Origin: an uncultured virus (IMG/VR IMGVR_UViG_3300021599_002865)
Lineage: Duplodnaviria > Heunggongvirae > Uroviricota > Caudoviricetes
Reading direction: 5' to 3' (one strand)
Virus record (IMG/VR): IMGVR_UViG_3300021599_002865
Length of the DNA stretch: 64,000 nucleotides
Under the pieces are notes generated by a model. The model saw nothing but the letters and a program-made list of their open reading frames with translations, searched no databases and was not told the DNA's origin. The position numbers and the translations under genes are program-made. Within the stretch, counting starts at the first letter, position 1, and each line of letters starts with the position of its first letter. Positions 12,044 to 49,735 of the stretch are shown one piece after another.

Positions 12044-12391
12044 ATGATTGTTGAAATTAATGAAAATTATTTTAATGTTAAAACATTGGTTGACCCAAAA
12101 TCCCAAGCTATTGGGATGATGAGAAGAAAATTCGATGATTCATTCAATGGTTTATTATTTTTAATGGGTGGTAAAAAACAATGTTTTTGGATGAAAAATT
12201 GTATCATCCCACTTGATATAATAATGATAAAAAATAATGTTATTGTCAATATACATCACGACTGTCCTCCTTGTTTAGAGGAACCTTGTCCGAGTTATTG
12301 TGGAAATGGAAATATCGTATTAGAACTCGAGGGTGGGACCTGTGAAATGTTAGGGATTGAAGCTGGAGATACGGTAGAATATATCTTCTAA
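12044..12391 (+). CDS. DUF192 family protein
   Basis: GMM.R....GLLF....FWMKNC.IPLDII...VLELEGG...GI..GD.V. Confidence 0.85.
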   Translation: MIVEINENYFNVKTLVDPKSQAIGMMRRKFDDSFNGLLFLMGGKKQCFWMKNCIIPLDIIMIKNNVIVNIHHDCPPCLEEPCPSYCGNGNIVLELEGGTCEMLGIEAGDTVEYIF

Positions 12392-14544
12392 ACTGTGAAA
12401 TCTCTCACAAAAAATTTACTTGACCTCATTCTCAAAAATATTGTTTTTGGTTTCTCAGGCACTGTTCCAAAAAATGGTATTGTGGTTGAACCTATACTAA
12501 TATCTGAAATACCACCTGCTTTAGCAACATCTACTGCAAAGGTTGCACAATTCGAATCACCACCCTCTGTCAAATCTATGAATGAGTAACTTCTTGGTTT
12601 ACTAGCCTCGTTCACAGAGTCTGTGAAATTAGGTAATCTCATAACATTTGTCCACATTGTTAGATTTGGACCGTCTTTGAAAGTTTTGGCTTTACAAGTT
12701 CTTGCAACATCACCAGCATTTGTGAAGTTTCCTTGTGAATCTATAGTCGCAATTTTCCCCATTTCAGTTTTCAAAACCTTTCCGTTTCCATCGTTATCGT
12801 AAGGTCCAAACTCATATAATTTTACAATACCTGTATGGTCAACTAAAATACAACCTCCATGTCCAGTGGCATATATTTTGATTTCTCTCTTTCCAACTTG
12901 TTCATTCAAACCTAAATAATCCTCTACCCACTCCAATGCTCTTCCGTGGAATGCTAATATGCGAGCAATCCAAGAATCTGTCATTGAAGGTCTATATTTC
13001 GGAAAAACAAAGAACATAAAAAAACCTGATTGATTTTTGTCTATGGGTTGAAGTGACTTAAAAACAAAATCATCCTTCTGTCTTGCAATTGATAAACTTG
13101 GTACTCTAATGTCCCCCGAAGAGGGATTGTACTGTTCCTCCAATTTTGACTCAGATTGAGAAATTTTTTCCTTTAACTTTCTGAAGAAATCTGAAGCCAA
13201 CATTTTTGTAAATTTTACATATGGTGCATCTTCTCTTTCAGGGTCATATCTATATTGACCTTCGGGTGGTCTTTTGGACCTACCAAGATAGTTCAATCCA
13301 CTTATATTCGTGATACACTTGTGACCTCCAGAGTTTGCGTTGATTAATTCCCAAGCACTTACATTAATATTATCTAAGATACTTTTTTCTTCATCTGTTA
13401 ATGATGTAAATGGTTTTGACATCATTTCTTTAAGTCTATTCAAAGCCTCTTCTCCTCTTTCTTGTTCTGCAAATTTTTCACCATAAACCGCATTAAAATC
13501 CTCGAATGTAAACCCAACACTTTCAGGGTTAACACCTGTTTCACTAATCCATTTTATCGTTGATAACGGGACTTTTCTTTCCTTGAGTTGAGCTTCATAC
13601 TTTGCAATGACCTCTTTAGCAATCTCTCCGAGATTAACACCTTTGAGCTTCCTTTCCTTTTTAAAAGGATTGCATGATACTTGAAGTAATCCCATCGGCC
13701 ATGCCATGATGAGAAAGTCTGCTTCAGGGTTATTTCTAAATGGGGTATACCTGTCATAAGAGCCAGGCTTAACCATACTACCTCCACCATATTGGTAAAT
13801 GATATTATCTTCAACATGGGGAAATCCTTTCATTTGTTTTGCATAATCTTGTGCGTGTTTTTGTAGTTCTTCTGGTTTTGGTGCATTTGTATCTTTCATC
13901 CATGTTTTGATGTTACTAAGTATATTCATCAAAGATGGTTCTGAATTCATTACAAGTCGCTCCAAAAATCCTTTCTTGTTTTTGAATGCTAAAATGAGTT
14001 TGTTTATAACGAAACCCAATAACATTTTGTTTCTTTGTAACGGCTTTTCTTTATCTAATCTAAAAAGATAATTGACTACCTCCTCGGGACTTATATCTTG
14101 TCTAGCGAAATCTGCGGAGTCAACAGTGTTAATCAATAAAACGTCAGATGAGGGAAATAAATCTTTGGGTGAAATTATTTGTGAGATTGTTTCCACGTTT
14201 GAACGTGCTTGTCTAAATGATTTCGAAGCACCTTTTTCCGCACCTATTTGTTTGTCATGATGGTCCGTGTGGATAACGAACATTGGTTTACCATGAGCAA
14301 AGTCAACCAAAACAGGCATGGTATCACCCTTAGCGTCATTCTTCTTAACCGCAAATTCTTTTTCCCCATATTGTATTACGTGAACATCTACCACATCAAT
14401 ACCATTGTTCTCAAGGTATTTTTTCATCGCAATAGCAGTAGTTACACCATCTAAATCTTGGTGGAAATATATTTCAGCCTTCGGGTATCTTTTTCTTAAT
14501 GCGGAAATATCTCTTAAACCTGTCTCAGTTATTAGGTTCTTCAT
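12388..14544 (-). CDS. DHH-family phosphoesterase fused to a C-terminal permuted papain-like domain
   Basis: FHQDLDG, VDF, TDHH, SGGH; C-terminal TGHGG...YEFGPY...SNCATF. Confidence 0.75.
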   Translation of the reverse strand: MKNLITETGLRDISALRKRYPKAEIYFHQDLDGVTTAIAMKKYLENNGIDVVDVHVIQYGEKEFAVKKNDAKGDTMPVLVDFAHGKPMFVIHTDHHDKQIGAEKGASKSFRQARSNVETISQIISPKDLFPSSDVLLINTVDSADFARQDISPEEVVNYLFRLDKEKPLQRNKMLLGFVINKLILAFKNKKGFLERLVMNSEPSLMNILSNIKTWMKDTNAPKPEELQKHAQDYAKQMKGFPHVEDNIIYQYGGGSMVKPGSYDRYTPFRNNPEADFLIMAWPMGLLQVSCNPFKKERKLKGVNLGEIAKEVIAKYEAQLKERKVPLSTIKWISETGVNPESVGFTFEDFNAVYGEKFAEQERGEEALNRLKEMMSKPFTSLTDEEKSILDNINVSAWELINANSGGHKCITNISGLNYLGRSKRPPEGQYRYDPEREDAPYVKFTKMLASDFFRKLKEKISQSESKLEEQYNPSSGDIRVPSLSIARQKDDFVFKSLQPIDKNQSGFFMFFVFPKYRPSMTDSWIARILAFHGRALEWVEDYLGLNEQVGKREIKIYATGHGGCILVDHTGIVKLYEFGPYDNDGNGKVLKTEMGKIATIDSQGNFTNAGDVARTCKAKTFKDGPNLTMWTNVMRLPNFTDSVNEASKPRSYSFIDLTEGGDSNCATFAVDVAKAGGISDISIGSTTIPFFGTVPEKPKTIFLRMRSSKFFVRDFTV

Positions 14545-16177: not shown

Positions 16178-16204
16178 TAAAAAAAGGAGGTTAGACCTCC
16201 TTTT
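16178..16204. terminator. intrinsic terminator, possibly bidirectional
   Basis: AAAAGGAGGT-TAG-ACCTCCTTTT. Confidence 0.7.
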
Positions 16205-17054
16205 CAAAATCAAGTTCTGGTTGATTTTTTTTATCTATAAAATGTTGAACTCTTTTTCGAGCGACTTCCGCATAATTAGGACTGAGTTCAATCCCTATCC
16301 ACCTTCTATCTAATATCTCTGCCGCACATGCACTTGTTCCACTTCCCATGAATGGGTCAAGAACCAAATCGTTCTTATAGGTTAATATTTTTATGGCTTT
16401 CGCTGGAATATCCATTGAGAAGGTTGCCTTGGTAAGTTGTTTTGTATCAGCGAAATAGTCCCATTGACCATATACTAAATCCATAAACTCACGTTTTTGC
16501 TCCTCAGTATACATTGTCTTATTTCTTTTTTTTCCATCCTCACTCTCGATTTCCTCAACAACTCCAACCCATTGCGGCTCCCCCTTAATCTTTTTGATTC
16601 TATCTTTTTTATATGCTAAAATCACACATTCTTTCGGATTGTAGATATAAGGAGAGGACGGTGACATCCATGAGCCCCAAGCAGTGGTCTTACTTCTATG
16701 TGGTGAGTTTTCATTCAGGTCAACCAGTCCGTAAAACTTATAACCAATTTTTTGCATGATTGACCATAATTCCGAAACCATGAAAATTCTCCCACCTTTA
16801 TCTTGTCTATTGATTTCATAAGGTATGTTCAGGGCAATTCTTCCGTCGTCTTTCAAAAGTCTGAAAGCTTGGGTCAACCATTTTTTTGAAAATTCCTTGT
16901 AATCTTCAAATTGAACGTCGTCGTCATGAACATCGTATTCGATTCCAACACCATACGGTGGTGATGTTACAATTAAATCAATTGATTTCTCAGGTAGGGT
17001 CTTCATGACTTCAACACAATCTCCTTGAGTTATTTTTCTTATATAATTTTCCAT
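16191..17054 (-). CDS. beta-class amino (N4-C/N6-A) DNA methyltransferase
   Basis: IVTSPPY precedes VLDPFMGSGT; GIELS. Confidence 0.9.
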   Translation of the reverse strand: MENYIRKITQGDCVEVMKTLPEKSIDLIVTSPPYGVGIEYDVHDDDVQFEDYKEFSKKWLTQAFRLLKDDGRIALNIPYEINRQDKGGRIFMVSELWSIMQKIGYKFYGLVDLNENSPHRSKTTAWGSWMSPSSPYIYNPKECVILAYKKDRIKKIKGEPQWVGVVEEIESEDGKKRNKTMYTEEQKREFMDLVYGQWDYFADTKQLTKATFSMDIPAKAIKILTYKNDLVLDPFMGSGTSACAAEILDRRWIGIELSPNYAEVARKRVQHFIDKKNQPELDFEKEV

Positions 17055-17455
17055 TACAACTTTCCCTCTTGTTTCATTTGTTCTCTAATCTTTGTTGCAG
17101 AGATATCATGAATGTCCTGAGGTGGAACATGTTCAATAATATCATAACCTACTCCTCTTCCAAAATTGACAGATTCAATATCGGGTATGACAATTACTTT
17201 TACCGTTTGGTCACTGAGCAATTGCCATAATTCTTTTTTTATGTTCGCCTCAACTTCTTGAGCGGAAAAAGGATTTTTTTCATCAGGGGCAATATCCCTA
17301 ATACAAATCAAAACATTTTTACCTTCGTTGAGTCTTTGGTCAATCAACCATCTGTGTCCAGCATGCCACGGTTGCCATCTTCCGATAAACATGGAATACT
17401 GTTTTGCCCCCGTGTTTTTTAACTTAGGGTCACCCTCTACGTGAATTTTTTGCAT
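17054..17455 (-). CDS. HxGH-superfamily (cytidylyl/adenylyltransferase-like) nucleotidyltransferase
   Basis: FIGRWQPWHAGH and ISATKIR motifs. Confidence 0.85.
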   Translation of the reverse strand: MQKIHVEGDPKLKNTGAKQYSMFIGRWQPWHAGHRWLIDQRLNEGKNVLICIRDIAPDEKNPFSAQEVEANIKKELWQLLSDQTVKVIVIPDIESVNFGRGVGYDIIEHVPPQDIHDISATKIREQMKQEGKL

Positions 17456-17879
17456 AGTCTAAAACTTTTTTTGCAGATACCTCAACACTTTCATTTGTGG
17501 TGTCGATACTAAGATATCTTTCGGTAGGTGCCTCATATTCTTTAACAAAGAAACTTTCTCTTCCTCTTACCTCTGTTGTATGAATATAAACCTCAACCAT
17601 ATTATCCCCCATCTTCTGTTTGAACTTGTCTCGTTGGTCTTTGTAAGGGGAAACCAACGATACTAATACATCTTTACCTTTGTTGTGAAGGTATTGAGCG
17701 ATTTGTTGTGCGAGTTCTATGTTCTTTCTTCTCCCTGTTTCAGAATAATCTTTATTATCGAATAAATCTCTTAGGTCATCACCGTCGATATGAAATATTC
17801 TATGGTCTCTAATGTCCAAGATTTCGTTACAGATTGTTGTTTTGCCAGCACCAGGCTGTCCTGTTAACCAGTATATCAT
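17430..17879 (-). CDS. cysC: adenylyl-sulfate (APS) kinase
   Basis: WLTGQPGAGKTT, IDGDDLR, R..NI, SLVSPY...R, YEAP. Confidence 0.85.
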   Translation of the reverse strand: MIYWLTGQPGAGKTTICNEILDIRDHRIFHIDGDDLRDLFDNKDYSETGRRKNIELAQQIAQYLHNKGKDVLVSLVSPYKDQRDKFKQKMGDNMVEVYIHTTEVRGRESFFVKEYEAPTERYLSIDTTNESVEVSAKKVLDYAKNSRRG

Positions 17880-24986: not shown

Positions 24987-25016
24987 AAAAAAGGGATTTT
25001 TAAATCCCTTTTTTTC
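24985..25016. terminator. bidirectional intrinsic terminator between convergent genes
   Basis: A8-GGGATTT-TT-AAATCCC-T7. Confidence 0.8.
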
Positions 25017-27342
25017 CGCTTGCTAACATTTCCAATTTTTCTAATTTCCTTTCATGGAAATCTAAAAGGGTGGATTGTTCTTTGATTGCCTCTAAACAAG
25101 CTGATATAATCGTTTCAAATCTTATTGATAACATTGTGGTTTCTGGGTCTTCATAAACGAGTTCAGGAAATACCAACTGCAACTCTTGTGCAATAAAACC
25201 TATCTGAAGTAACTCGGGTCTTTCATCATCTTTTATTAGATGGTAGGAAACACCTCTAGTCTTTAATATTTTGTCCAAACTATCTGTAATTGGTCTGATA
25301 TTAGTTTTGAACCTTAAATCCGATGGTCCAGGTGCACCTGATGCACCTTGTGCCCCTGTTGGTCCTGTGCCACCTTGTGGACCAGTTCCACCACCTCCAC
25401 CTTGAGCACCTTGTGGACCTGTTCCTCCTGTTCCACCACCAGTCCCTTGAGCACCTTGATTACCCGTAGGACCGGTTGGTCCTCCAGGACCTTGAGCACC
25501 TTGTGCACCTTGGTTTCCATTACCTTGTGATGGACCTTGGGCTCCTTGAGAACCAGTTCCACCTCCTCCACCAGGAGGTCCTGTGTGACCTTGAGCTCCC
25601 TGTGGACCTCGGTTACCCGTTGGTCCGCCAGGACCCTGAGCACCTTGTGCTCCGCCAGGACCCTGAGCACCTTGTCCACCTTGAGAACCTTGAGCTCCTT
25701 GAGCTCCTGTTGCACCACCACCACCTTGAGAACCTTGTCCTCCCTGTGAACCTTGGGCTCCTTGGTTTCCACCACTGCCTTGAGCTCCTTGCGCACCTTG
25801 TCCTCCTGCCGGTCCTTGTGCTCCTTGGTTACCTTTACCACCTTGAGCTCCTTGCGCACCTTGTCCTCCTGCCGGTCCTTGTGCTCCTTGGGCTCCTCCT
25901 GGGCCTTGAGCTCCTTGCGCACCTTGTCCTCCTGTTGGTCCCTGAGCTCCTTGGTTACCTTTACCACCTTGTGCTCCTTGAGCACCTTGTCCTCCTTGAG
26001 AACCTTGTGAACCTGTGGCACCTACAGGCCCCTGTGCTCCTTGTGCTCCCTGTCCACCTTGTGAACCTTGACCACCTTTGGCACCTTGTGAACCTTGTCC
26101 TCCTTGAGCTCCTTGTCCACCTGTTGGTCCTTGTGCTCCTTGATTACCACCCGAACCTTGCGCTCCTTGAGCTCCTTGTCCACCTGTTGGTCCTGTAGCA
26201 CCCTTACCACCTTGAGAACCTTGTCCTCCTTGAGCTCCTTGTCCACCTGTTGGTCCTTGAGCTCCTTGATTACCACCCGAACCTTGCGCTCCTTGAGCTC
26301 CTTGTCCACCCTGTGAGCCTTGGGAACCTGTGGCACCCGCAGAACCTACTGGACCTTGTGCTCCTTGGCCTCCCTGCGAACCTTGTGAGCCCGTGGCCCC
26401 TTGTGCACCTACTGGCCCTTGAGCTCCCTGTCCACCTTGTGAACCTTGGGAACCTGTGGCTCCTGCTGAACCAACGGGACCCTGAGCTCCCTGTCCACCT
26501 TGTGAACCTTGTGAACCTATGGCACCTTGTGAACCTTGTCCACCTTGAGCTCCTTGTCCTCCCTGTGAACCTTGGGAACCTGTAGCTCCTTGTGACCCAA
26601 CTGGTCCTTGTGCTCCTTGACCTCCTTGTGACCCTTGGGAACCAACCGCTCCCTGAGAACCTGTGGCACCTTGAGCACCTTGACCTCCTTGTGAACCCTG
26701 AGAACCTGTAGCACCTTGTGACCCTACCGGCCCTTGAGCACCTTGTCCACCTTGTGAACCCTGAGAACCGACCGCTCCCTGTGAACCTGTGGCACCTTGA
26801 GCACCTTGACCTCCTTGTGAACCCTGAGAACCAGTATCGCCTTGTGCACCTATTGCACCCTGAGCACCTTGACCACCTTGTGCGCCTTGTGGACCTACAG
26901 CACCTTGGGAACCTTGTGAGCCAGTAATACCTTGAGCCCCTGTTGGACCTTGTGCTCCTTGACCCCCTTGTGAACCTTGAGCACCTTGACCACCTGTCAC
27001 TCCCTGGGAACCTTGATTTCCTTGAGCACCTTGTCCCCCTTGAAAACCAATACTACCTTGAGCACCAGTTGGTTCTCTATTACCAACCCATCCTGTAGAG
27101 TTGATAAGTGTTCCTGCTGAATTTTTTAAACTAGTTGTTATCTTGAGGTTACTATTGTAAGTTACAAATGAAGGTTTATCACTTCTCCAAGCAAGATAAA
27201 CAATATTACTATTATCTGTCCAATGCAAATGTAGTAGTGGTGAATCGTCTTCAAGCTTCAAATATGTTGAGGTTGAGCCAGAATCAACGAATTCGACCGT
27301 GGGAAACGCATAATCAGGATATATTATTATATTTTCAGACAC
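25000..27342 (-). CDS. collagen-like fibre protein C with a C-terminal peptidase S74 chaperone domain
   Basis: ~194 G-X-Y triplets (aa 93-674), then [12 protein letters not shown]...IGFIAQE...PELV and a coiled coil. Confidence 0.9.
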
Positions 27343-29764
27343 TTAAATTATCTTTTAAAATTTTTATTCTCTCCATTATTGAGATTATTCTTTTCTGTTG
27401 TTCTTGAAGTGCACCAATACCCAAACTTACCATAAGACCATATTCAACTGATTTAAAGCCCTCCTCGTCTGTCCAAACAACTTCTGGGACGATATCTTCA
27501 ATTTGCTGTGCAATAAAACCTATTGTTTCACCAGTAAATGCACTTGGAAGAGATATTGCACGGTTCATTGATATTTTAGGATGGTCAACCCATTCGAATC
27601 TAACACCCTCAATACCTTTAACTTTTTCTAATACATTTGTTAAGGATTGAATATTATCTTTAAGTCTTTGGTCTGAAGGTGGACCCTGAGCTCCTTGAGC
27701 TCCTTGACCTCCTGTTGGACCAGTTCCACCCTGAGGACCTGTAGGTCCTACGTTACCTTGAGCACCTTGACCACCTTGGCCCCCACCTGAACCTGTAGCA
27801 CCTTGGGCACCTTGACCCCCTTGACCACCACCCGAGCCTTGAGCCCCTTGGGCTCCCGTAGCTCCTGGTCCTCCACCAGGCCCCACTGCTCCTTGGGCAC
27901 CTTGTCCTCCTGTTCCTCCTGTAGGTCCTGTTGGTCCCTGTGCTCCTTGGAATCCTGTTGCACCTCCCCCTCCTGTTCCACCTTGAGCCCCAACAGGACC
28001 CTGAGCGCCTTGAGCTCCCTGAGCACCACCCTGTGCTCCTTGAGCACCTGTGGAACCACCTCCACCTTGGCTTCCTTGAGCACCTGTAGTTCCACCTTGA
28101 GCTCCTTGAGCACCTGTTGGTCCTTGAGCACCTTGGTTACCTTGTGCACCTTGGTTACCACCTTGAGCTCCTTGGGCTCCTTGTGAACCTTGGACACCAG
28201 GAGCACCTTGTGCACCCGTATTTCCTCCTTGGGCTCCTTGAGCTCCTTGTGAACCTTGGACACCAGGAGCACCTTGTGCACCTGTTGAAGCTCCTTGAGC
28301 TCCCTGAGCCCCTTGAGAGCCCTGAACACCAGGAGCTCCCTGTGCTCCCGTTGAACCACCTTGAGCTCCTTGGGCTCCTTGGGCACCCTGATTACCTGTC
28401 GCACCTTGGGCACCTGTTGAACCACCTTGAGCACCCTGTGAACCTTGTGCCCCTTGTGCTCCAGTATTACCTTGAGCTCCTGTATTGGCTCCTTGTGCTC
28501 CTTGAGCACCTTGTGGTCCTTGTGCACCTTGGTTTCCTTGTGCACCTGTATTGGCTCCTTGTGCTCCTTGAGAGCCTTGAGCTCCTTGAGCACCTGTATT
28601 ACCTTGAGCTCCTGTATTGGCTCCTTGTGCACCTTGAGCACCTTGTGGTCCTTGTGCACCTTGGTTTCCTTGTGCACCTGTTGAAGCACCCTGTGCACCT
28701 TGCGCTCCCTGTCCTCCTTGTGAGCCTTGACCACCTTGAGCACCTGTTGTTCCTCCTTGGGCTCCTTGTGCTCCTGTTCCACCTTGAGCTCCTTGACCTC
28801 CTTGTGCCCCCGTGGTTCCCCCTTGGGCTCCTTGAGCACCCTGTCCTCCTTGTGAACCTTGAGCTCCTTGGGCTCCTGTTGTTCCTCCTTGTGCTCCTTG
28901 AGAACCTTGTGCACCTTGTGCTCCAGTTGAACCCTGAGCACCTGTTGTTCCTCCTTGAGCTCCTTGAGCTCCTTGTCCTCCTTGTGCCCCCTGTGCACCC
29001 TGAGCACCTGTTGTTCCTCCTTGGGCTCCTTGTGCACCTTGTCCTCCTTGGGCTCCTTGTGCACCCTGAGCACCTGTATTAGCTCCCTGAGCTCCTTGTG
29101 AACCCTGTCCTCCTTGTGCTCCTTGAGCTCCTTGAGCACCAATTGTTCCACCTTGAGCACCTTGAGCACCTTGTCCTCCTTGTGCACCTTGTGAACCCTG
29201 AGCACCTGTGTTAGCTCCTTGAGCACCTTGAGCTCCTTGACCACCTTGAGCTCCTTGACCACCTTGAGCTCCCGTATCCGCTCCTTGAGCTCCCTGTGCT
29301 CCCTGTCCACCCGTAGCACCTTGAGCTCCTTGAGGTCCTATCGAACCTTGTGAACCTTGAGCACCTACATTTCCTATTGCTCCCTTAGCACCTTGAGAAC
29401 CTTGCGCTCCTTGAGCACCTATTGACCCCTGAGAGCCTGTAGTTCCTGAAGCACCTTGTGCTCCTTGAGCACCGGTAAATCCAGATATACCCTCAGCAGG
29501 TCCTACCCATTCGCCAACTTCATTAATCATTTCTATACCACCCACATACAATCCATATATTCCTCCGGTGACCTTTGCACCATCAACGAGTAATTCAGCT
29601 CCGATAGTTGCTATGTTACTTTTTGTTGTTGATGAAACTTGGATATTTCCAGAACCATTAACAGATAATTGTATTTTGTCCGCGGATGAAATCCCTTCAA
29701 ATTCCATATGAGGGTTAGGGTTTCCACCACTTTTACCATTGGGATATATTATAACGTCAGACAT
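27335..29764 (-). CDS. collagen-like fibre protein B with periodic interruptions and a peptidase S74 domain
   Basis: 195 units (aa 92-696), including 20 G-X-X-X units spaced 22 aa apart; SDQRLKDNI...IGFIAQQ...PEVV. Confidence 0.9.
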
Positions 29765-32388
29765 TAATTAAGAAGGTTTTCAAGTTCATTTATTTGTTTT
29801 TCGATATCTGATATAAATACTTGTTGCTCTTTAATACCTTCAATCAAAACGGCGTTCATTCTATTATATTCAACAGTATAAAAACCATCAGAACCGATTT
29901 TAACTACTGTCGGGAAAAATTCTTTAACATTTTGAGCTATCAGACCAATCGAGTGAAGCTTGTTATTGTTTAATCTTTTAATGTAATCGCTTTTCGTCAA
30001 CTTTTCATTCCAATCGTATTCTACGACTCTAAGTTCAAGAATTTTTTCAAGTGTATTATCAAGTGATTTAACATTATATTTGACTCTTCTATCAGAGCAG
30101 CTGCCCCCGTATGTAAAATAACCATTGAAGTTAGTAGAACCATAATACAAATATGTAACACCAATCGTAATTGAACCATAGGTCCACTGAAATGTTGAGT
30201 TTTGACAAGTTGTAACATCTGAAGCGAGTTGGATGCTAAAATTTGCTTGCCAGTTAATATCTTGGGAATAAACTGTTCTGTTTTGACATGCCCCCGCGTT
30301 TACACAAATGGCGTAATAAGAATCACCACATAGATTCTGAACAAAACAAGAGGTGAACGAGCCAGGTCCTGTTGCACCTTGTGCACCTTGGGCTCCTTGT
30401 CCTCCCGTAGGACCCGTAGGACCCGTAGGACCACCCGACCCTTGTGCACCTTGGTTACCCGTAGGACCAGTAGGACCACCTGGTCCTTGTGCACCTTGGT
30501 TACCTTGAGGTCCTGTTACACCTGGTGCACCTTGAGCACCTTGACCTCCGTTTGGACCTTTCGGTCCAGCAGCTCCTTGCGCCCCTTGGCTACCCGTAGC
30601 ACCCCCACCACCTTGAGGACCTTGAGCACCTTGAGCACCCTGACCTCCTGTTCCACCTTGTGGTCCTGGAGCACCTTGAGCACCTTGATTTCCTGTTGCT
30701 CCTTGTGCACCTGGATGACCTGTAGCACCCTTACCACCCTGTGAACCCTGAGCACCTGTTGCTCCCTGAGGACCAATTGCACCTGTATTACCCCCTGCAC
30801 CTTGTGCACCTTGTGGTCCTGTGGCACCTTGTGCTCCTGGATGTCCTGTTCCTCCACCAGAACCTGTTGGACCTTGTGGTCCTGTGGCTCCCTGTGCTCC
30901 TGGATGTCCTGTTCCTCCACCTGAACCTTGAGGACCTTGTGGTCCTGTGGCTCCTTGTGCTCCTGGATGTCCTGTTCCTCCACCCGAACCTGTTGGACCT
31001 TGTGGTCCTGTGGCTCCTTGTGCTCCTGTATGACCAACGGCACCTTGAGCACCTTGAGGTCCTGTTGGTCCTGTTGCTCCTTGAGCTCCTGGATGTCCTG
31101 TGGCTCCTTGAGCACCCGTCGAACCTGCATTACCTGTAGCACCTTGAGCACCAGGGTGACCTGTGTTTCCTGTTGGCCCCTGTGCACCTTGTGGTCCTGT
31201 AGCACCTTGAGCACCCGCATGACCCGTCGCACCTTGTGCCCCAGTAGAACCAGCATTCCCCGTAGCACCTTGTGCACCTGGATGACCTGTATTTCCTGTT
31301 GGTCCCTGTGCTCCTTGTGGTCCTGTAGCACCCTGAGCACCAGCATGACCCGTCGCACCTTGTGGTCCTTGAGCCCCTTGAGGACCTGTAGCACCTTGAG
31401 GTCCTACTGCACCTGTAGAACCTGTAGGTCCTTGTGCACCTGTATTACCTGTGGCTCCTTGTGGGCCAACATTTCCTTGTGCTCCTGTATTACCTTGTGC
31501 TCCTGTGTTACCTGTGGCTCCTTGTGGTCCTACGTTACCTGTAGCCCCGGTAGCTCCCTGAGCCCCTGTGTTACCTGTGGCCCCTTGTGGTCCAACATTT
31601 CCTTGTGCTCCTGTATTACCTTGTGCTCCTGTATTACCTGTGGCCCCTTGTGGACCAACATTTCCTTGTGCTCCTGTATTACCTTGTGCTCCTGTGTTAC
31701 CTGTAGCTCCTTGAGCACCTGTATGACCCTGTGCACCTGTATTTCCTTGTGCTCCTGTATTACCTGTGGCCCCTTGTGGTCCAACATTTCCTTGAGCTCC
31801 CGTGTTACCTTGCGCTCCTGTGTTACCTGTGGCTCCTTGTGCACCTGTATTACCCTGTGCACCTGTATTTCCTTGTGCACCGGTATTTCCCGTGGCTCCT
31901 TGTGCACCTGTATTACCCTGTGCACCCTGGGTTGTGCCTTTAGCACCCTGTGCCCCTTGGGGTCCAACCTGACCTTGTGCACCTGTATCACCTTGTGCAC
32001 CTTGTATTCCTTGTAACCCTTGTGCACCCAAATTTCCCTGTGCACCCGTATCACCCTGTGCACCTGTATTGCCCTGCGCACCTTGGTGACCCTGAGCCCC
32101 TTGAGCTCCTGCAATACCTGTGGTTGGTCCAATCCAATCCAAAGTTCCATCAATTACTTGAACTGAGTCAATAGCAAAATAATCAGAAACATTAAGCGTT
32201 ACAACACCAATTGTTTGGCTAGAACGGTCAATAACTAATTGATTAGTAACTGATGCTGAGCTAAGATTAATCTTACCCGTTGGCACAACTCTCCAAACAC
32301 TTGTTCCACTGTTAACCCAATTTATATAAGGGACTCTGTCTGGTGTTCTAGAAATGGAATTACTCGGAACTATTAAAATATCACCCAT
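29764..32388 (-). CDS. collagen-like fibre protein A with a Cys-rich tip domain and a peptidase S74 domain
   Basis: 195 units (aa 91-676); ~88-aa Cys/aromatic-rich domain; SDRRVKYNV...IGLIAQ. Confidence 0.9.
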
Positions 32389-32488: not shown

Positions 32489-33202
32489 ATGACATTAAAA
32501 AAAATAGGTAGCAAATCTTACGTTGTAAACTTACTTTCAGACTACATTCTTTCTGAGATATCAACTGAAGAGAACTCAATAATAAAAGTAATCGACTGTG
32601 GTAATTTTTTTGTTATCAAAGGAAAAACCACTTCAAAAGAAGTTTTATTTTTACCAAACATAATTTCTAAATTTAATGAGAGATTCGAAATACCCTCTAA
32701 ACTCACCCATACAATTGACTTAATTGAATATGATTCTGATTTACCTGATGTAAAGTCAATTTCCCACACATACCACAGTAATACCTCCAACTGTTCATAT
32801 AATCAAACCGAAATCGAAAAAAATGAGATTTCCGAAGAAACTGATGAATTAGTATACGTTTCTTCATTTCCCCACGGTTATTCCCTAACTCAGGGTAGAT
32901 TACTTTATTATTATGGGAAAAAAATATTCTACAACATTCCATCCAATTACCTTGTCACGAGTTTGGAATTTCATCTAACAAATGAGAGAAATGATGAAAA
33001 TGAATTTGGATTCAGCGTTTACGATGGATTTTACAAAACAAAGGATGAAGTGCTTCGTTCTGCGGTCTTAGATATATTTGATTTCAATATGGAGCCAATC
33101 GCCAAAGAAATAAAAAAAGTGGATTGGAGTATCGAACTCACAGACCCACTTTACGAATATGATTTTTTGAAAGAAAAGGTTGAGGGATTTATTATTATAT
33201 AA
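32489..33202 (+). CDS. hypothetical protein, possibly a degenerate SAM-synthetase (MetK)-fold protein
   Basis: Weak pattern resemblance only (NLLSDYIL; FFVIKGKTT; PHGYS...GR..YY.G..I; DIFDF). Confidence 0.45.
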   Translation: MTLKKIGSKSYVVNLLSDYILSEISTEENSIIKVIDCGNFFVIKGKTTSKEVLFLPNIISKFNERFEIPSKLTHTIDLIEYDSDLPDVKSISHTYHSNTSNCSYNQTEIEKNEISEETDELVYVSSFPHGYSLTQGRLLYYYGKKIFYNIPSNYLVTSLEFHLTNERNDENEFGFSVYDGFYKTKDEVLRSAVLDIFDFNMEPIAKEIKKVDWSIELTDPLYEYDFLKEKVEGFIII

Positions 33203-33494
33203 TACCTAATTTTTTTCTGTGTCCTTGTATAATTTGAATTGCCTCAGTTAATTCATTATAATTTCTTTCTGGAGCATATAAATGAGGTTCATAATCTTTA
33301 TCGTCACCTTCGATAATCATCAAAGCTGGAACCATGTCATTTTCCGTCACTTCAGAATACATATTATATTCTTTGGAATACTCATCGATGTCTCGTTCAA
33401 AGAAGTCTATGTTTTCGGTTCTCAACATTTTTTTGAATTCATCACAATGAGGACATCCTTTCATTGTGTATACTATAACGTTTAAATTTTTCAT
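33195..33494 (-). CDS. glutaredoxin
   Basis: VYTMKGCPHC...VP. Confidence 0.85.
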   Translation of the reverse strand: MKNLNVIVYTMKGCPHCDEFKKMLRTENIDFFERDIDEYSKEYNMYSEVTENDMVPALMIIEGDDKDYEPHLYAPERNYNELTEAIQIIQGHRKKLGII

Positions 33495-33495
33495 T

Positions 33496-33819
33496 TTAAT
33501 CTAAAAGATTTAATACTTCGGGTGCAGTCATGACACCAGGTTTAGAAAACACCTCTTTACCTTCTTTAAATATTTTAATTGTTGGAACACTTCTGATTTG
33601 AAGTTCGTTTACGACATACTCTCTATCGGAATCAATATCCAACTTATAGATTGAATACTTGGGTGAACTTGTTGACTCACTAATCAGGGATTCGTTCACC
33701 TTTTCGAGATTGTATAACATTATTTTACAAGGTCCGCACCATGTTGCAAACAAATCCAATACAAAATTTTCTCCGTTGTTAATTTTTTGTTTAAGTTGTT
33801 CCGTTGTTATCTGTTCCAT
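33496..33819 (-). CDS. trxA: thioredoxin
   Basis: LDLFATWCGPCK...IRSVPT..IFKEG. Confidence 0.9.
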   Translation of the reverse strand: MEQITTEQLKQKINNGENFVLDLFATWCGPCKIMLYNLEKVNESLISESTSSPKYSIYKLDIDSDREYVVNELQIRSVPTIKIFKEGKEVFSKPGVMTAPEVLNLLD

Positions 33820-39325: not shown

Positions 39326-39466
39326 ATGGCATGTAGTAGTTGTAAATCAAATCGTCCAATAAATAGAGTTAAATGGGGCGTGTTAATTTTAGGAAGTTAT
39401 ATTGTTTTCTCATCTGTTTACGGAACAATCGAAATATTCAAAATTATAATAGAATTTTTTAAATAG
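39326..39466 (+). CDS. 46-aa membrane peptide starting MACSSCK, not in the ORF track
   Basis: CxxC N-terminus plus a TM helix; fills a gap. Confidence 0.55.
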   Translation: MACSSCKSNRPINRVKWGVLILGSYIVFSSVYGTIEIFKIIIEFFK

Positions 39467-40379
39467 GTCTCTCGAATTTCAAATTGAGTTTAACATAAAA
39501 ATCACCACCTTTATATCCTTTTCCTCTTAATCTTAAAGGTTTAGATGTGTCTATTATTTTTGGTGCTTGTAAATTTAAATCACCATCTGGATGTGGAATT
39601 AAAAATTTATCATTTTGTATTTGTTCCAAATTCAGTGTCAAATTATAAACCAAATCTGAATTAATCTTTTCAAACCCATCTTTCGGGACCATTTCCACTT
39701 GAATTACCAAATCCCCCATACCTCCGTTTTTGAAATCACCCAAGTTTGGTAGTTTGAGAAACTGTCCACTATCAATACCTTGTGGGACTTTGACCCTAAT
39801 GCTATGAATGGTCTGACTTGTTCCTTTTCCACCACACAAATAACACCTTTCAACTAAAATGGTTCCTTGACCATTGCAGTTCCCGCAAATTGTCCTTATT
39901 TGTTGAACCATGAATCCTGTCCCAAATGTTTTGATAAAGAAACCTTGACCACCGCAAGACCCACAGGTTTGATGCTGGCCCCCGTTACCTTGACAAGAAT
40001 TACACGGAATATCTCTACTATATTGAATTTCCTTTTCCCCACCCAAATAGGATTCAATTGGTGAAACTTGAAGTCTCACAACTTTGTCTGGTGCATGCCT
40101 CGGTCTTTGTCCTTGGAAATGAGGATTGCGACCAAACATGTTATCAAAGAAACTCTCAAAATTGGTTCCTTGATATGGGTTGGACTTTTGATTATTATAC
40201 TGAGCTCTTTTTTCTCTGTCTCCCAAAACTTCGTAAGCTTCGTTTATCTCTTTAAATTTTTCAGCACCATCGGGATTGATGTCAGGATGAAATCTTTTTG
40301 AGAGGTTTCTGTAACTCTTTTTGATTTCATCTTCTGAGGCATTCTCTTCAACTTCTAGAATTTTGTAGTAATTTTTCAT
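39459..40379 (-). CDS. dnaJ: DnaJ chaperone
   Basis: J domain with HPD, four CxxCxGxG motifs, C-terminal GDL and LRLRGKG. Confidence 0.9.
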   Translation of the reverse strand: MKNYYKILEVEENASEDEIKKSYRNLSKRFHPDINPDGAEKFKEINEAYEVLGDREKRAQYNNQKSNPYQGTNFESFFDNMFGRNPHFQGQRPRHAPDKVVRLQVSPIESYLGGEKEIQYSRDIPCNSCQGNGGQHQTCGSCGGQGFFIKTFGTGFMVQQIRTICGNCNGQGTILVERCYLCGGKGTSQTIHSIRVKVPQGIDSGQFLKLPNLGDFKNGGMGDLVIQVEMVPKDGFEKINSDLVYNLTLNLEQIQNDKFLIPHPDGDLNLQAPKIIDTSKPLRLRGKGYKGGDFYVKLNLKFERPI

Positions 40380-48937: not shown

Positions 48938-49735
48938 TTACATGTAGTCGAACAAACTACCCGTTTCATTCCTAAGTTTTCTGAGGGCTTTTTCTTTGAT
49001 TTGTCTAACCCTTTCCTTAGTTAAATCAAAGTCATTACCAATATCTTCTAATGTTCTTGTTGAGCCAGATAACCCGAAATAATCTTGGATGATTACCTTT
49101 TCTCTTTCATCGAGAACATCGAGAAGTGAAAGTAATTTATCTTTAAGTGTTTGCTCTGAAGAAAGTCCTGAGTCCGCACTTTCAGCATTTGGATTTGGAA
49201 CAACATCCAAAAGCGTATCTCCCTCTTCGTTAAGTGGGCTATCCAAGTTCACAATAGATGGTAGGTTGAGAAACTTCTCAGGAAGTTCAGTCCCCACCTT
49301 GTCAAGTTCTTTTTTCGCCTTATGTAGTTCTTGAACCACATTTACTGGTAGTCGAATTGTTCTAGCATTTTCATTCAAGGATTGAAGTATGGATTGTCTA
49401 ATCCACCACACAGCGTATGATATGAATCTAAGATTTTTTGACCAATCAAAATTCTCAATCGCTTTCATAAGACCATAATTACCTTCAGCGATAAGGTCAG
49501 GTAAATCTAACCCTTGGTTTTGATATTGTTTGGAAACAGTAATCACAAACCTTAAGTTACCCTCGAGAATTTCTTTTTTTATTTCTTCCTTCTCTTGGAT
49601 TGAGATTCTACCTGATAACATTTTTCTAGAAAGTTCTCTTTCTCTCTCTACCGTCATTACCTTAAGTTTTCTTACTTCTTTAAGGTAGGCGTTAATTTCT
49701 TCCTGATTAATTGGGATTACACTTTTTTCCTTCAT
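48938..49735 (-). CDS. RpoD/sigma70-family sigma factor without region 1.1
   Basis: YLKEV, NLRFVITVSKQYQNQG...DLIAEGN.GL.KA, RFISYAVWWIRQSI, RTIRLP, TLEDIG...LTKERVRQIKEKALRKLR. Confidence 0.95.
   Translation of the reverse strand: MKEKSVIPINQEEINAYLKEVRKLKVMTVERERELSRKMLSGRISIQEKEEIKKEILEGNLRFVITVSKQYQNQGLDLPDLIAEGNYGLMKAIENFDWSKNLRFISYAVWWIRQSILQSLNENARTIRLPVNVVQELHKAKKELDKVGTELPEKFLNLPSIVNLDSPLNEEGDTLLDVVPNPNAESADSGLSSEQTLKDKLLSLLDVLDEREKVIIQDYFGLSGSTRTLEDIGNDFDLTKERVRQIKEKALRKLRNETGSLFDYM

Follow-up and report, generated by a model that had tools for sequence, protein, structure and literature searches.

The locus analysed here raises the question of why one of three neighbouring collagen genes in a virus should carry an extra residue at regular intervals along its Gly-X-Y repeat, and what such an array would do to the fibre. 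The three genes (A, B and C) lie in a 64,000-nucleotide stretch of viral DNA (the window), which is part of a 77.9 kb virus record. The original prediction was that B contains twenty one-residue insertions at a strict seven-unit period, that A and C share the period in uninterrupted form, and that all insertions fall on the same face of a 7/2 collagen helix, which could give either a regularly curved fibre or a row of modification or binding sites.

The coordinates of the features are given in Table 1. All three genes are on the minus strand and overlap end to start. The collagen family (PF01391) was matched above its cut-off as a long Gly-X-Y repeat of about 194–195 units per chain; when counting started at the Gly of a conserved W-x-G motif and ended at the final Gly, the chains gave 195, 195 and 195. 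The rods are proline-poor (6–18% Pro at X in the three chains) and nearly uncharged. Peptidase_S74 (PF13884) was matched at 48.8–60 bits in A, B and C (cut-off 22), and the tails also gave PHROG tail-fibre matches. Collagen and Peptidase_S74 were the only Pfam matches in the three chains, with no C-terminal gC1q domain. The S74 tails of the three paralogues are 28–35% identical and, because the S-D...K motif is conserved, would be expected to cleave themselves off after folding. The Cys-rich domain of A is a candidate receptor-binding tip. The heads of A and B are homologous (hhalign 99.7%), and the alignment of the B and C heads spans only 12 columns. The heads had no sequence match in the PDB (0 at E <= 1) and no PHROG match. 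A homologue search with the B head returned 0 at E <= 0.001, and an exhaustive search with it returned nine proteins, all of 60–447 residues, the query's own cluster included.

Table 1. Locations of the collagen genes, their parts and the related collagen cassettes (window numbering unless a locus or record is named).
Feature	Location	Strand	Remarks
Gene A	29764..32388	-	874 aa: head of ~90 aa, collagen rod, Cys-rich tip domain, Peptidase_S74
Gene A rod			195 units counted from W-x-G; one four-residue unit
Gene B	27335..29764	-	809 aa: head, collagen rod of 195 units with 20 periodic insertions, Peptidase_S74
Gene C	25000..27342	-	780 aa, GTG start: head, collagen rod of 195 units, Peptidase_S74
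Insertion array in B	28019..29284	-	20 G-x-x-x units; period 66 nt / 22 aa / 7 units
Head of A	32119..32388	-	Homologous to B head; no known family
Head of B	29492..29764	-	
Head of C	27067..27342	-	
Cys-rich variable domain	30097..30360	-	Chain A only; absent in L021
S74 chaperone of A	29899..30096	-	S, D, K invariant in 18/18 aligned
S74 chaperone of B	27476..27676	-	S, D, R, K invariant in 18/18
S74 chaperone of C	25153..25323	-	S, D, R, K invariant in 18/18
Period-6 S74 cassette	L015 4537-11056		
Trio without S74	L284 5944-13227		Also L321
Two-gene length-matched collagen pair without S74	L253 2781-9801		Also L256, L290, L279, L249
Second collagen	G001:C1 1-5420 and 319769-321283 (L223, L224)	-	Also 77475-77915 of the 77.9 kb record, outside the window
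Second collagen in G002	L225, L226		

The B head is 100% identical across eight IMG/VR contigs of up to 321 kb. Judged by the T4-type major capsid protein (PF07068, E = 4.6e-62) and the tail-sheath match (E = 3.6e-9) encoded in the complete record G001, the carrier of the cassette is a jumbo myophage. Exactly three S74 domains were found in G001, and likewise in two other records searched. The head domain gave 0 matches among 50,697 phage records, and no cultured relative carrying it was found. An upstream neighbour on the opposite strand is common to six of the seven loci inspected. Other genes of the window, all on the minus strand, include a 718-residue protein with a DHH-like N-terminal part and a TseH-like C-terminal domain (12388-14544; Pfam E = 5.6e-8), adjacent DNA methylase, cytidylyltransferase-like and APS-kinase-like genes (16191-17879), a thioredoxin adjoining a glutaredoxin-like ORF (33195-33819), a full DnaJ (39459-40379) and a sigma-70 factor (48938-49735). 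No tRNAs were found in the 64 kb.

Gene B was parsed as 23 triplets, 20 four-residue units and 37 triplets. Neighbouring four-residue units are separated by exactly six triplets, giving 19 equal intervals of 22 residues from nucleotide 29284 to 28019, which bears out the predicted number and period of the insertions. Most of the four-residue units (17 of 20) end in Thr, as had been noted; the exceptions are GGTI, GGNQ and GGAQ. The probability of a constant gap under random placement of 20 sites in 194 units is about 1e-24, a null that excludes scatter only, since gaps of one size would equally result from tandem duplication by itself. The autocorrelation analysis that had been proposed as a check was run on the units of all three proteins. 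Peaks were obtained at lags 7, 14, 21 and 28 in A, B and C, with lag-7 z values of 14.0, 10.3 and 12.5, respectively, against 500 shuffles, and A and C thus have the period of B. The period fades over the last ~45 units of the chains. Tandem Repeats Finder (TRF) reported a period of 66 nt for B and of 63 nt for the other two genes. The description of A and C as uninterrupted applies to their 21-residue (63 nt) repeats, but A contains GTTQ at unit 21 and C contains one Gly replacement (GPSQGN). The 19 66-nt units of B are 59–91% identical (mean 73%), no two being the same, and the same layout is present in 8/8 other assemblies, so that the array is not an artefact of assembly.

Relatives were collected with a DNA pattern for a single site, which made no assumption about the period (55 loci), and with insertion-blind searches on tail or head motifs (77, 20 and 60 further loci). 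Because the heads are too variable for locus searches, tail alignment and DNA motifs were used instead; the tail-alignment scan covered 3 of the 64 parts of the database, and its matches were mostly unrelated S74 genes. In total, 220 loci were obtained, 136 of them with tails of the family, which formed 29 clusters at 85% identity. The B tails are 32–82% identical between clusters (median 54%), and the period is kept among these homologues, contrary to the loss that had been named as refuting the prediction: when each cluster is represented by one B chain, 579 insertion gaps are obtained, with 469 of 7 units, 35 of 14 and 23 of 6. All ten clusters that were reached without the insertion pattern also carry arrays, of 8–43 sites. 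The insertions are concentrated in B (524 in 26 chains, compared with 29 and 32 in equal numbers of A and C chains), and the best autocorrelation lag between 2 and 12 is 7 in 20/26 A, 23/27 B and 22/27 C chains. Counted from the head, the position of the first regular B site is 3 modulo 7 in 18/25 clusters; in 13 of these 18 it is one and the same inherited unit, number 24. Exceptions to the spacing are a mixture of 6 and 7 in L065 and a change from 6 to 4 in L190. Joint growth of the three genes in steps of seven units may account for part of the periodicity in A and C.

Duplication was clearly involved in the growth of the array, which contains blocks of 66, 132 and 198 nt, and would have copied the period for free. 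The array could accordingly be a neutral relic of a 66-nt tandem duplication, a reading against which several observations stand. The period survives across tails that are 32–82% identical, although neighbouring GAQ triplets are identical and would favour slips by one triplet; the other collagen of the phage has no such insertions and peaks at lags 16 and 8; and arrays based on deletions occur in unrelated families.

The numbers of units in the three chains were compared in the 22 of 29 clusters with a complete anchored cassette, the other seven being cut by contig ends or missed in anchoring (one of the latter, L016, gave 174/174/174 in a separate count). The three chains agree within one unit in 14/22 clusters and within three in 17/22, over a range of 72–321 units; in 20,000 permutations of the unit matching the mean was 0.10 and the highest value 3. 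Phylogenetic independent contrasts of the unit counts gave r = 0.98 (21 contrasts). Among the 17 matched cassettes, the excess of B is 5–36.5 residues but only -2.5 to +1 units. Globular domains of 95–244 residues are looped out of the rod of chain A in L030, L181, L051, L172, L033 and L202; they leave the Gly register unchanged and lie outside the unit match (for example, 140/140/140 in L181). Five of the 22 clusters (L033, L051, L053, L159 and L185) are mismatched by 7–28 units. Of 21 pair differences larger than three, 18 lie within one of a multiple of seven, which would fit repeat collapse or slippage, but no comparable excess was seen when one chain was compared within a cluster (18/36).

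A match in units and not in residues is expected of chains that are zipped Gly to Gly in one helix, and not of separate fibres of equal length. Three separate homotrimeric fibres held at equal length would nevertheless account for the intact S74 domain in each gene. S74 fibres have been described as homotrimers, and prokaryotic collagens are likewise called homotrimeric in a review (PMC8968730). Against separate fibres, the tip domain is present on A only, and one of each tail type is kept although the tails are reordered in 3 of 25 clusters. In the permuted cassettes (L027, L167 and L165) head a is joined to tail B, head c to tail A and head b to tail C. L165 has its insertion array split over two chains, one carrying it in the first half and the other in the second.

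The association of the three heads was modelled using segments of about 100 residues each, with 3–4 collagen triplets included and a separate alignment for each head, the heads being paralogues. The ABC model scored 0.89, compared with 0.02 for the best of three controls, all of which were combinations other than homotrimers. The mark used for the score is passed by 116 of 157 solved complexes and by 2 of 215 mismatched pairs. The runs agreed in at least 95% of contacts, with a partner pLDDT of 91–92. The model supports an ABC trimer of the heads, as a prediction of binding and not of selectivity over homotrimers.

A relation between two of the chains was found at sites where the array of B is incomplete. 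For the count, one cassette was taken from each of 20 clusters in which B and C match. In B, 28 lattice sites are skipped, and at 20 of these C carries a one-residue deletion one to three units further on (+1 to +3), typically of the form G-x-S-P-x and mostly at +2; such a deletion accompanies 1 of the 372 filled B sites. The Fisher p value (2e-26) overstates the association, as compensated sites within one phage are non-independent and the deep nodes of the tree are weakly supported; the 20 sites belong to six clusters on about five branches of the tail tree (L027, L211, L061/L159, L030 and L028). The same offsets were seen in L167, L172 and L185, which fell outside the count because of truncation or mismatch. 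Eight of the 28 skipped sites are without a C deletion, and insertions in C lie at scattered offsets (+1 to +5). Recombination could have spread a compensated variant between phages. In 7/2 geometry, a deletion bends the helix in the same way as a B insertion at +1.5 or +0.5 in two of four staggers, and the agreement of this geometry with the offsets of the C deletions is consistent but weak. A chain order (leading, middle, trailing) assigned by hand from the offsets was dropped as under-determined.

A change in C within 1–2 triplets of a missing B feature is difficult to account for if the chains are not adjacent in one helix. This result favours a mechanical role of the array in a mixed helix and makes three homotrimers very unlikely, and the compensation in a different gene largely refutes the neutral relic, which we regard as barely credible. 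A, B and C very probably wind, one of each, into a heterotrimeric collagen. Since the compensation occurs in a different chain, the selected property appears to be the mismatch in chain length and not a particular side chain, and selection on a periodic mismatch of this kind is highly likely.

The same result bears on the second half of the original prediction, a row of Thr modification or binding sites. The array could form a row of points at 6 nm intervals for glycosylation, for binding or for lateral packing, with a decorating protein, adjacent fibres or the tail sheath as possible partners. Thr occupies position 4 in 53% of the four-residue units (n = 599), compared with 18% at the Y position of normal triplets, the period is common to all three chains, and four GT2 and two GT1 matches in the genome make modification of Thr possible; glycosylated tripeptide trimers do occur in pond water, according to the accessible part of one report (10.1101/2025.09.30.679562). 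The fourth residue is, however, Gln in 35% of the units, and an insertion can be replaced by a deletion on another chain, with a sequence unlike its own. The glycosyltransferases seen are at a distance of at least 30 kb, and one of them adjoins another collagen, which is Ser-rich. We therefore do not favour a row of sites, which appears distinctly improbable.

The explanation that we favour for the array, and consider somewhat more probable than its alternatives together, is an ABC fibre that is bent by its periodic mismatch into an arc or coil with static curvature. One chain each of A, B and C would form a single triple-helical fibre of the virion. The three S74 domains would nucleate folding from the C-terminus and then presumably cut themselves off, and the head would anchor the fibre to the virion. 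The rise of collagen is 0.86 nm per triplet, and on this basis the rod would be about 168 nm long, with 21 nm of plain helix, 114 nm of kinked helix and 33 nm of plain helix ending in the Cys-rich tip of A. The extra B residue at every seventh unit would produce a slight kink in about every turn of the helix. The mismatch selected in each period would be either B longer by one residue or C shorter by one residue a unit or two further on, both of which would bend the rod in the same way. The likeliest use of such a fibre would be to capture or wrap a filament on the host surface.

The bend caused by one extra residue was estimated geometrically as at most 15–37°. In a toy model with the kinks in phase, 20 kinks of 10–30° gave 0.6–1.7 turns with a radius of 12–35 nm. 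A slip of 25° per period gave an open coil of 5–7 nm radius, and a 10/3 twist (a slip of 108°) gave a nearly straight rod with a radius of about 1 nm or less. Whether the kinks add up or cancel depends on the actual twist, which is thus the key quantity for curvature. Collagen helices with little proline should be wound less tightly than 7/2, and the interruption itself may add twist. Of the predicted location of all insertions on the same helix face, the regular spacing of seven has held; the face itself, which would require a twist of seven triplets per turn, is not established, the chains being proline-poor, other families having spacings of 6–8 and a glycosylated tripeptide trimer having a measured twist of 8.3 triplets per turn.

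The mismatch could instead act in the ABC heterotrimer as a series of evenly spaced flexible joints or twist resets with no fixed net curve. Local loosening is suggested by the replacement of Gly at position 1 in 15% of the four-residue units, and the spacing tolerates values of 6–8. Interruptions are also described, in passages of PMC9898670 and of other sources, as lowering stability and adding flexibility, and short breaks in one chain as possibly only shifting the register. Joints of this type would need neither a partner deletion at a fixed offset of +2, nor a start phase kept modulo 7, nor the confinement of the insertions to one chain, and we consider them unlikely.

Other collagens with periodic irregularities were sought in the same database. 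A search for insertions with periods of 6–9 left open covered 14 of its 64 parts; clean insertion arrays were found only at period 7, all resembling the ABC family, together with one short period-5 case. A distantly related three-gene S74 cassette (L015, L035, L046 and L048) has insertions every six units in its third gene, a period of 6/12 in all three chains and heads of ~36 residues. The pattern search for deletions covered 7 of the 64 parts and presupposed period 7, so that it documents the existence of arrays and gives no measure of enrichment for 7. In all, 254 loci were examined, 151 with collagen and 33 distinct ones with some repeated gap. The deletion-bearing cassettes are without S74 and without similarity to the ABC heads. 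The L284 trio (no S74) has chains of 240, 242 and 240 units; one of them carries 29 deletions, and 21 of the 28 gaps are 7. In the L253 pair (313/313 units), 39 deletions are spaced by 8 and then by 7 units (22 gaps of 7 and 10 of 8), and L256 has 50 deletions with 44 gaps of 7, its second gene being split by a frameshift. The deletions of the L253-type pair take the form G-x-S-P-x every 7–8 units, and its heads appear Hint-like by eye; a 2:1 heterotrimer is possible for pairs of this type. Single-gene viral collagens with many loosely spaced deletions and no matched partner were also found (L266/L267, L245 and L288). L266/L267 are single genes of 1000–1500 units with more than 80 such deletions and a modal gap of 8, and L095, also a single gene, has ~740 units.

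In four families the spacings cluster at 6–8, which suggests that they are tuned to roughly one helical turn. That large phages have, more than once, used phased one-residue indels on one chain to code the shape of mixed-chain collagens is a proposal that we make tentatively. Equally tentative is the content of such a code: the spring radius and pitch of the fibre would be tuned by a spacing of 6, 7 or 8, in a manner exchangeable between chains and resembling phased A-tracts in bent DNA.

The second collagen of the phage is a single gene of more than 650 triplets, almost exclusively GTS, GSS and GTD. It is without S74 and without periodic insertions, its best lags in G001 are 16 and 8, and it adjoins a GT1 gene. 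A glycofibril from pond water, TLP-3, is described in the available part of its report as a trimer of tripeptides composed of two small residues and an O-glycosylated Ser/Thr, the source of which its authors did not find (10.1101/2025.09.30.679562). The same part gives a measured twist of 105.6° for this glycosylated tripeptide trimer, i.e. 8.3 triplets per turn. The second collagen gene fits this description and is a candidate source of TLP-3. This assignment was made by comparing the gene with the published description.

The closest known counterpart of the ABC fibre is the stalk of C1q, in which three different chains are encoded by three tandem genes. As proposed here for ABC, it combines three different chains, matched Gly registers and an extra residue in one chain that gives a kink. 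Passages of the C1q literature state that only the three-peptide mixture folds (PMC11869133), that the extra residue in one chain kinks the helix and that MBL-type peptides bend by 11–85° (PMC9898670). C1q differs in having one kink, a short stalk, gC1q heads and hydroxyproline, and has no homology to ABC; the sites of ABC number 20, or as many as 43 in relatives, and recur with a fixed period along 70–320 units, and its chains have S74 C-termini and unrelated heads.

With regard to phage fibres, a C-terminal Peptidase_S74 intramolecular chaperone is present in the K1F endosialidase and the L-shaped fibre of T5. ABC shares with these proteins the PF13884 domain, the conserved catalytic S-D...K motif and the PHROG tail-fibre matches of its tails. 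S74 fibres have been described as products of one gene that form homotrimers, whereas ABC consists of three paralogues that co-vary in length. Fibres combining collagen with S74 are reported for polinton-like viruses in the passages seen of PMC12220804, and periodic interruptions in S74 fibres are not described in the passages of the literature consulted. The E. coli prophage protein EPclA forms a real triple helix according to an excerpt of PMC3368898. EPclA/B, streptococcal Scl and Bacillus Bcl resemble ABC in having Gly-X-Y rods without hydroxyproline and with Gln or Thr at Y; the EPcl proteins have at most a single interruption and are rich in Pro and charged residues, unlike the nearly uncharged ABC chains. 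Type IV and IX collagens share with ABC interruptions of unequal length among their chains (G3G insertions and one-residue deletions), which in the passages available are irregular, whereas the array of ABC is periodic. Such unequal interruptions have been proposed to kink heterotrimers, and the structural result is called 'currently not understood' in the available text of PMC11923368. Neither a heterotrimeric phage collagen nor periodic interruptions of a single chain were found in the passages retrieved from the open-access PMC and bioRxiv literature.

If it is a heterotrimer, ABC would be a natural hydroxyproline-free mixed collagen with self-removing folding domains; recombinant heterotrimers with the correct stagger are stated to be hard to make in an excerpt of the source that gives prokaryotic collagens as homotrimers (PMC8968730). 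Its natural long arrays of one defined interruption, with exchanges of an extra residue in B for a missing one in C and with varied spacings, make the question of interruptions in heterotrimers directly testable. If the curvature is confirmed, it would provide a rule for designing collagen materials that curve or coil. Fibres of suggestive shape are on record: according to the passages seen, PBS1 has corkscrew fibres of ~125 nm that wrap flagella (PMC9266447), and corkscrew or curly fibres also occur in phages 0305phi8-36, chi and 7-7-1 (PMC2147016, PMC12796354); no link to collagen was found in the passages on these four phages. The likeness to ABC, which is known from its genes alone, is one of inferred shape only, and a confirmed curvature would make periodic mismatch in a mixed-chain collagen a candidate molecular basis for the curly fibres of phages.
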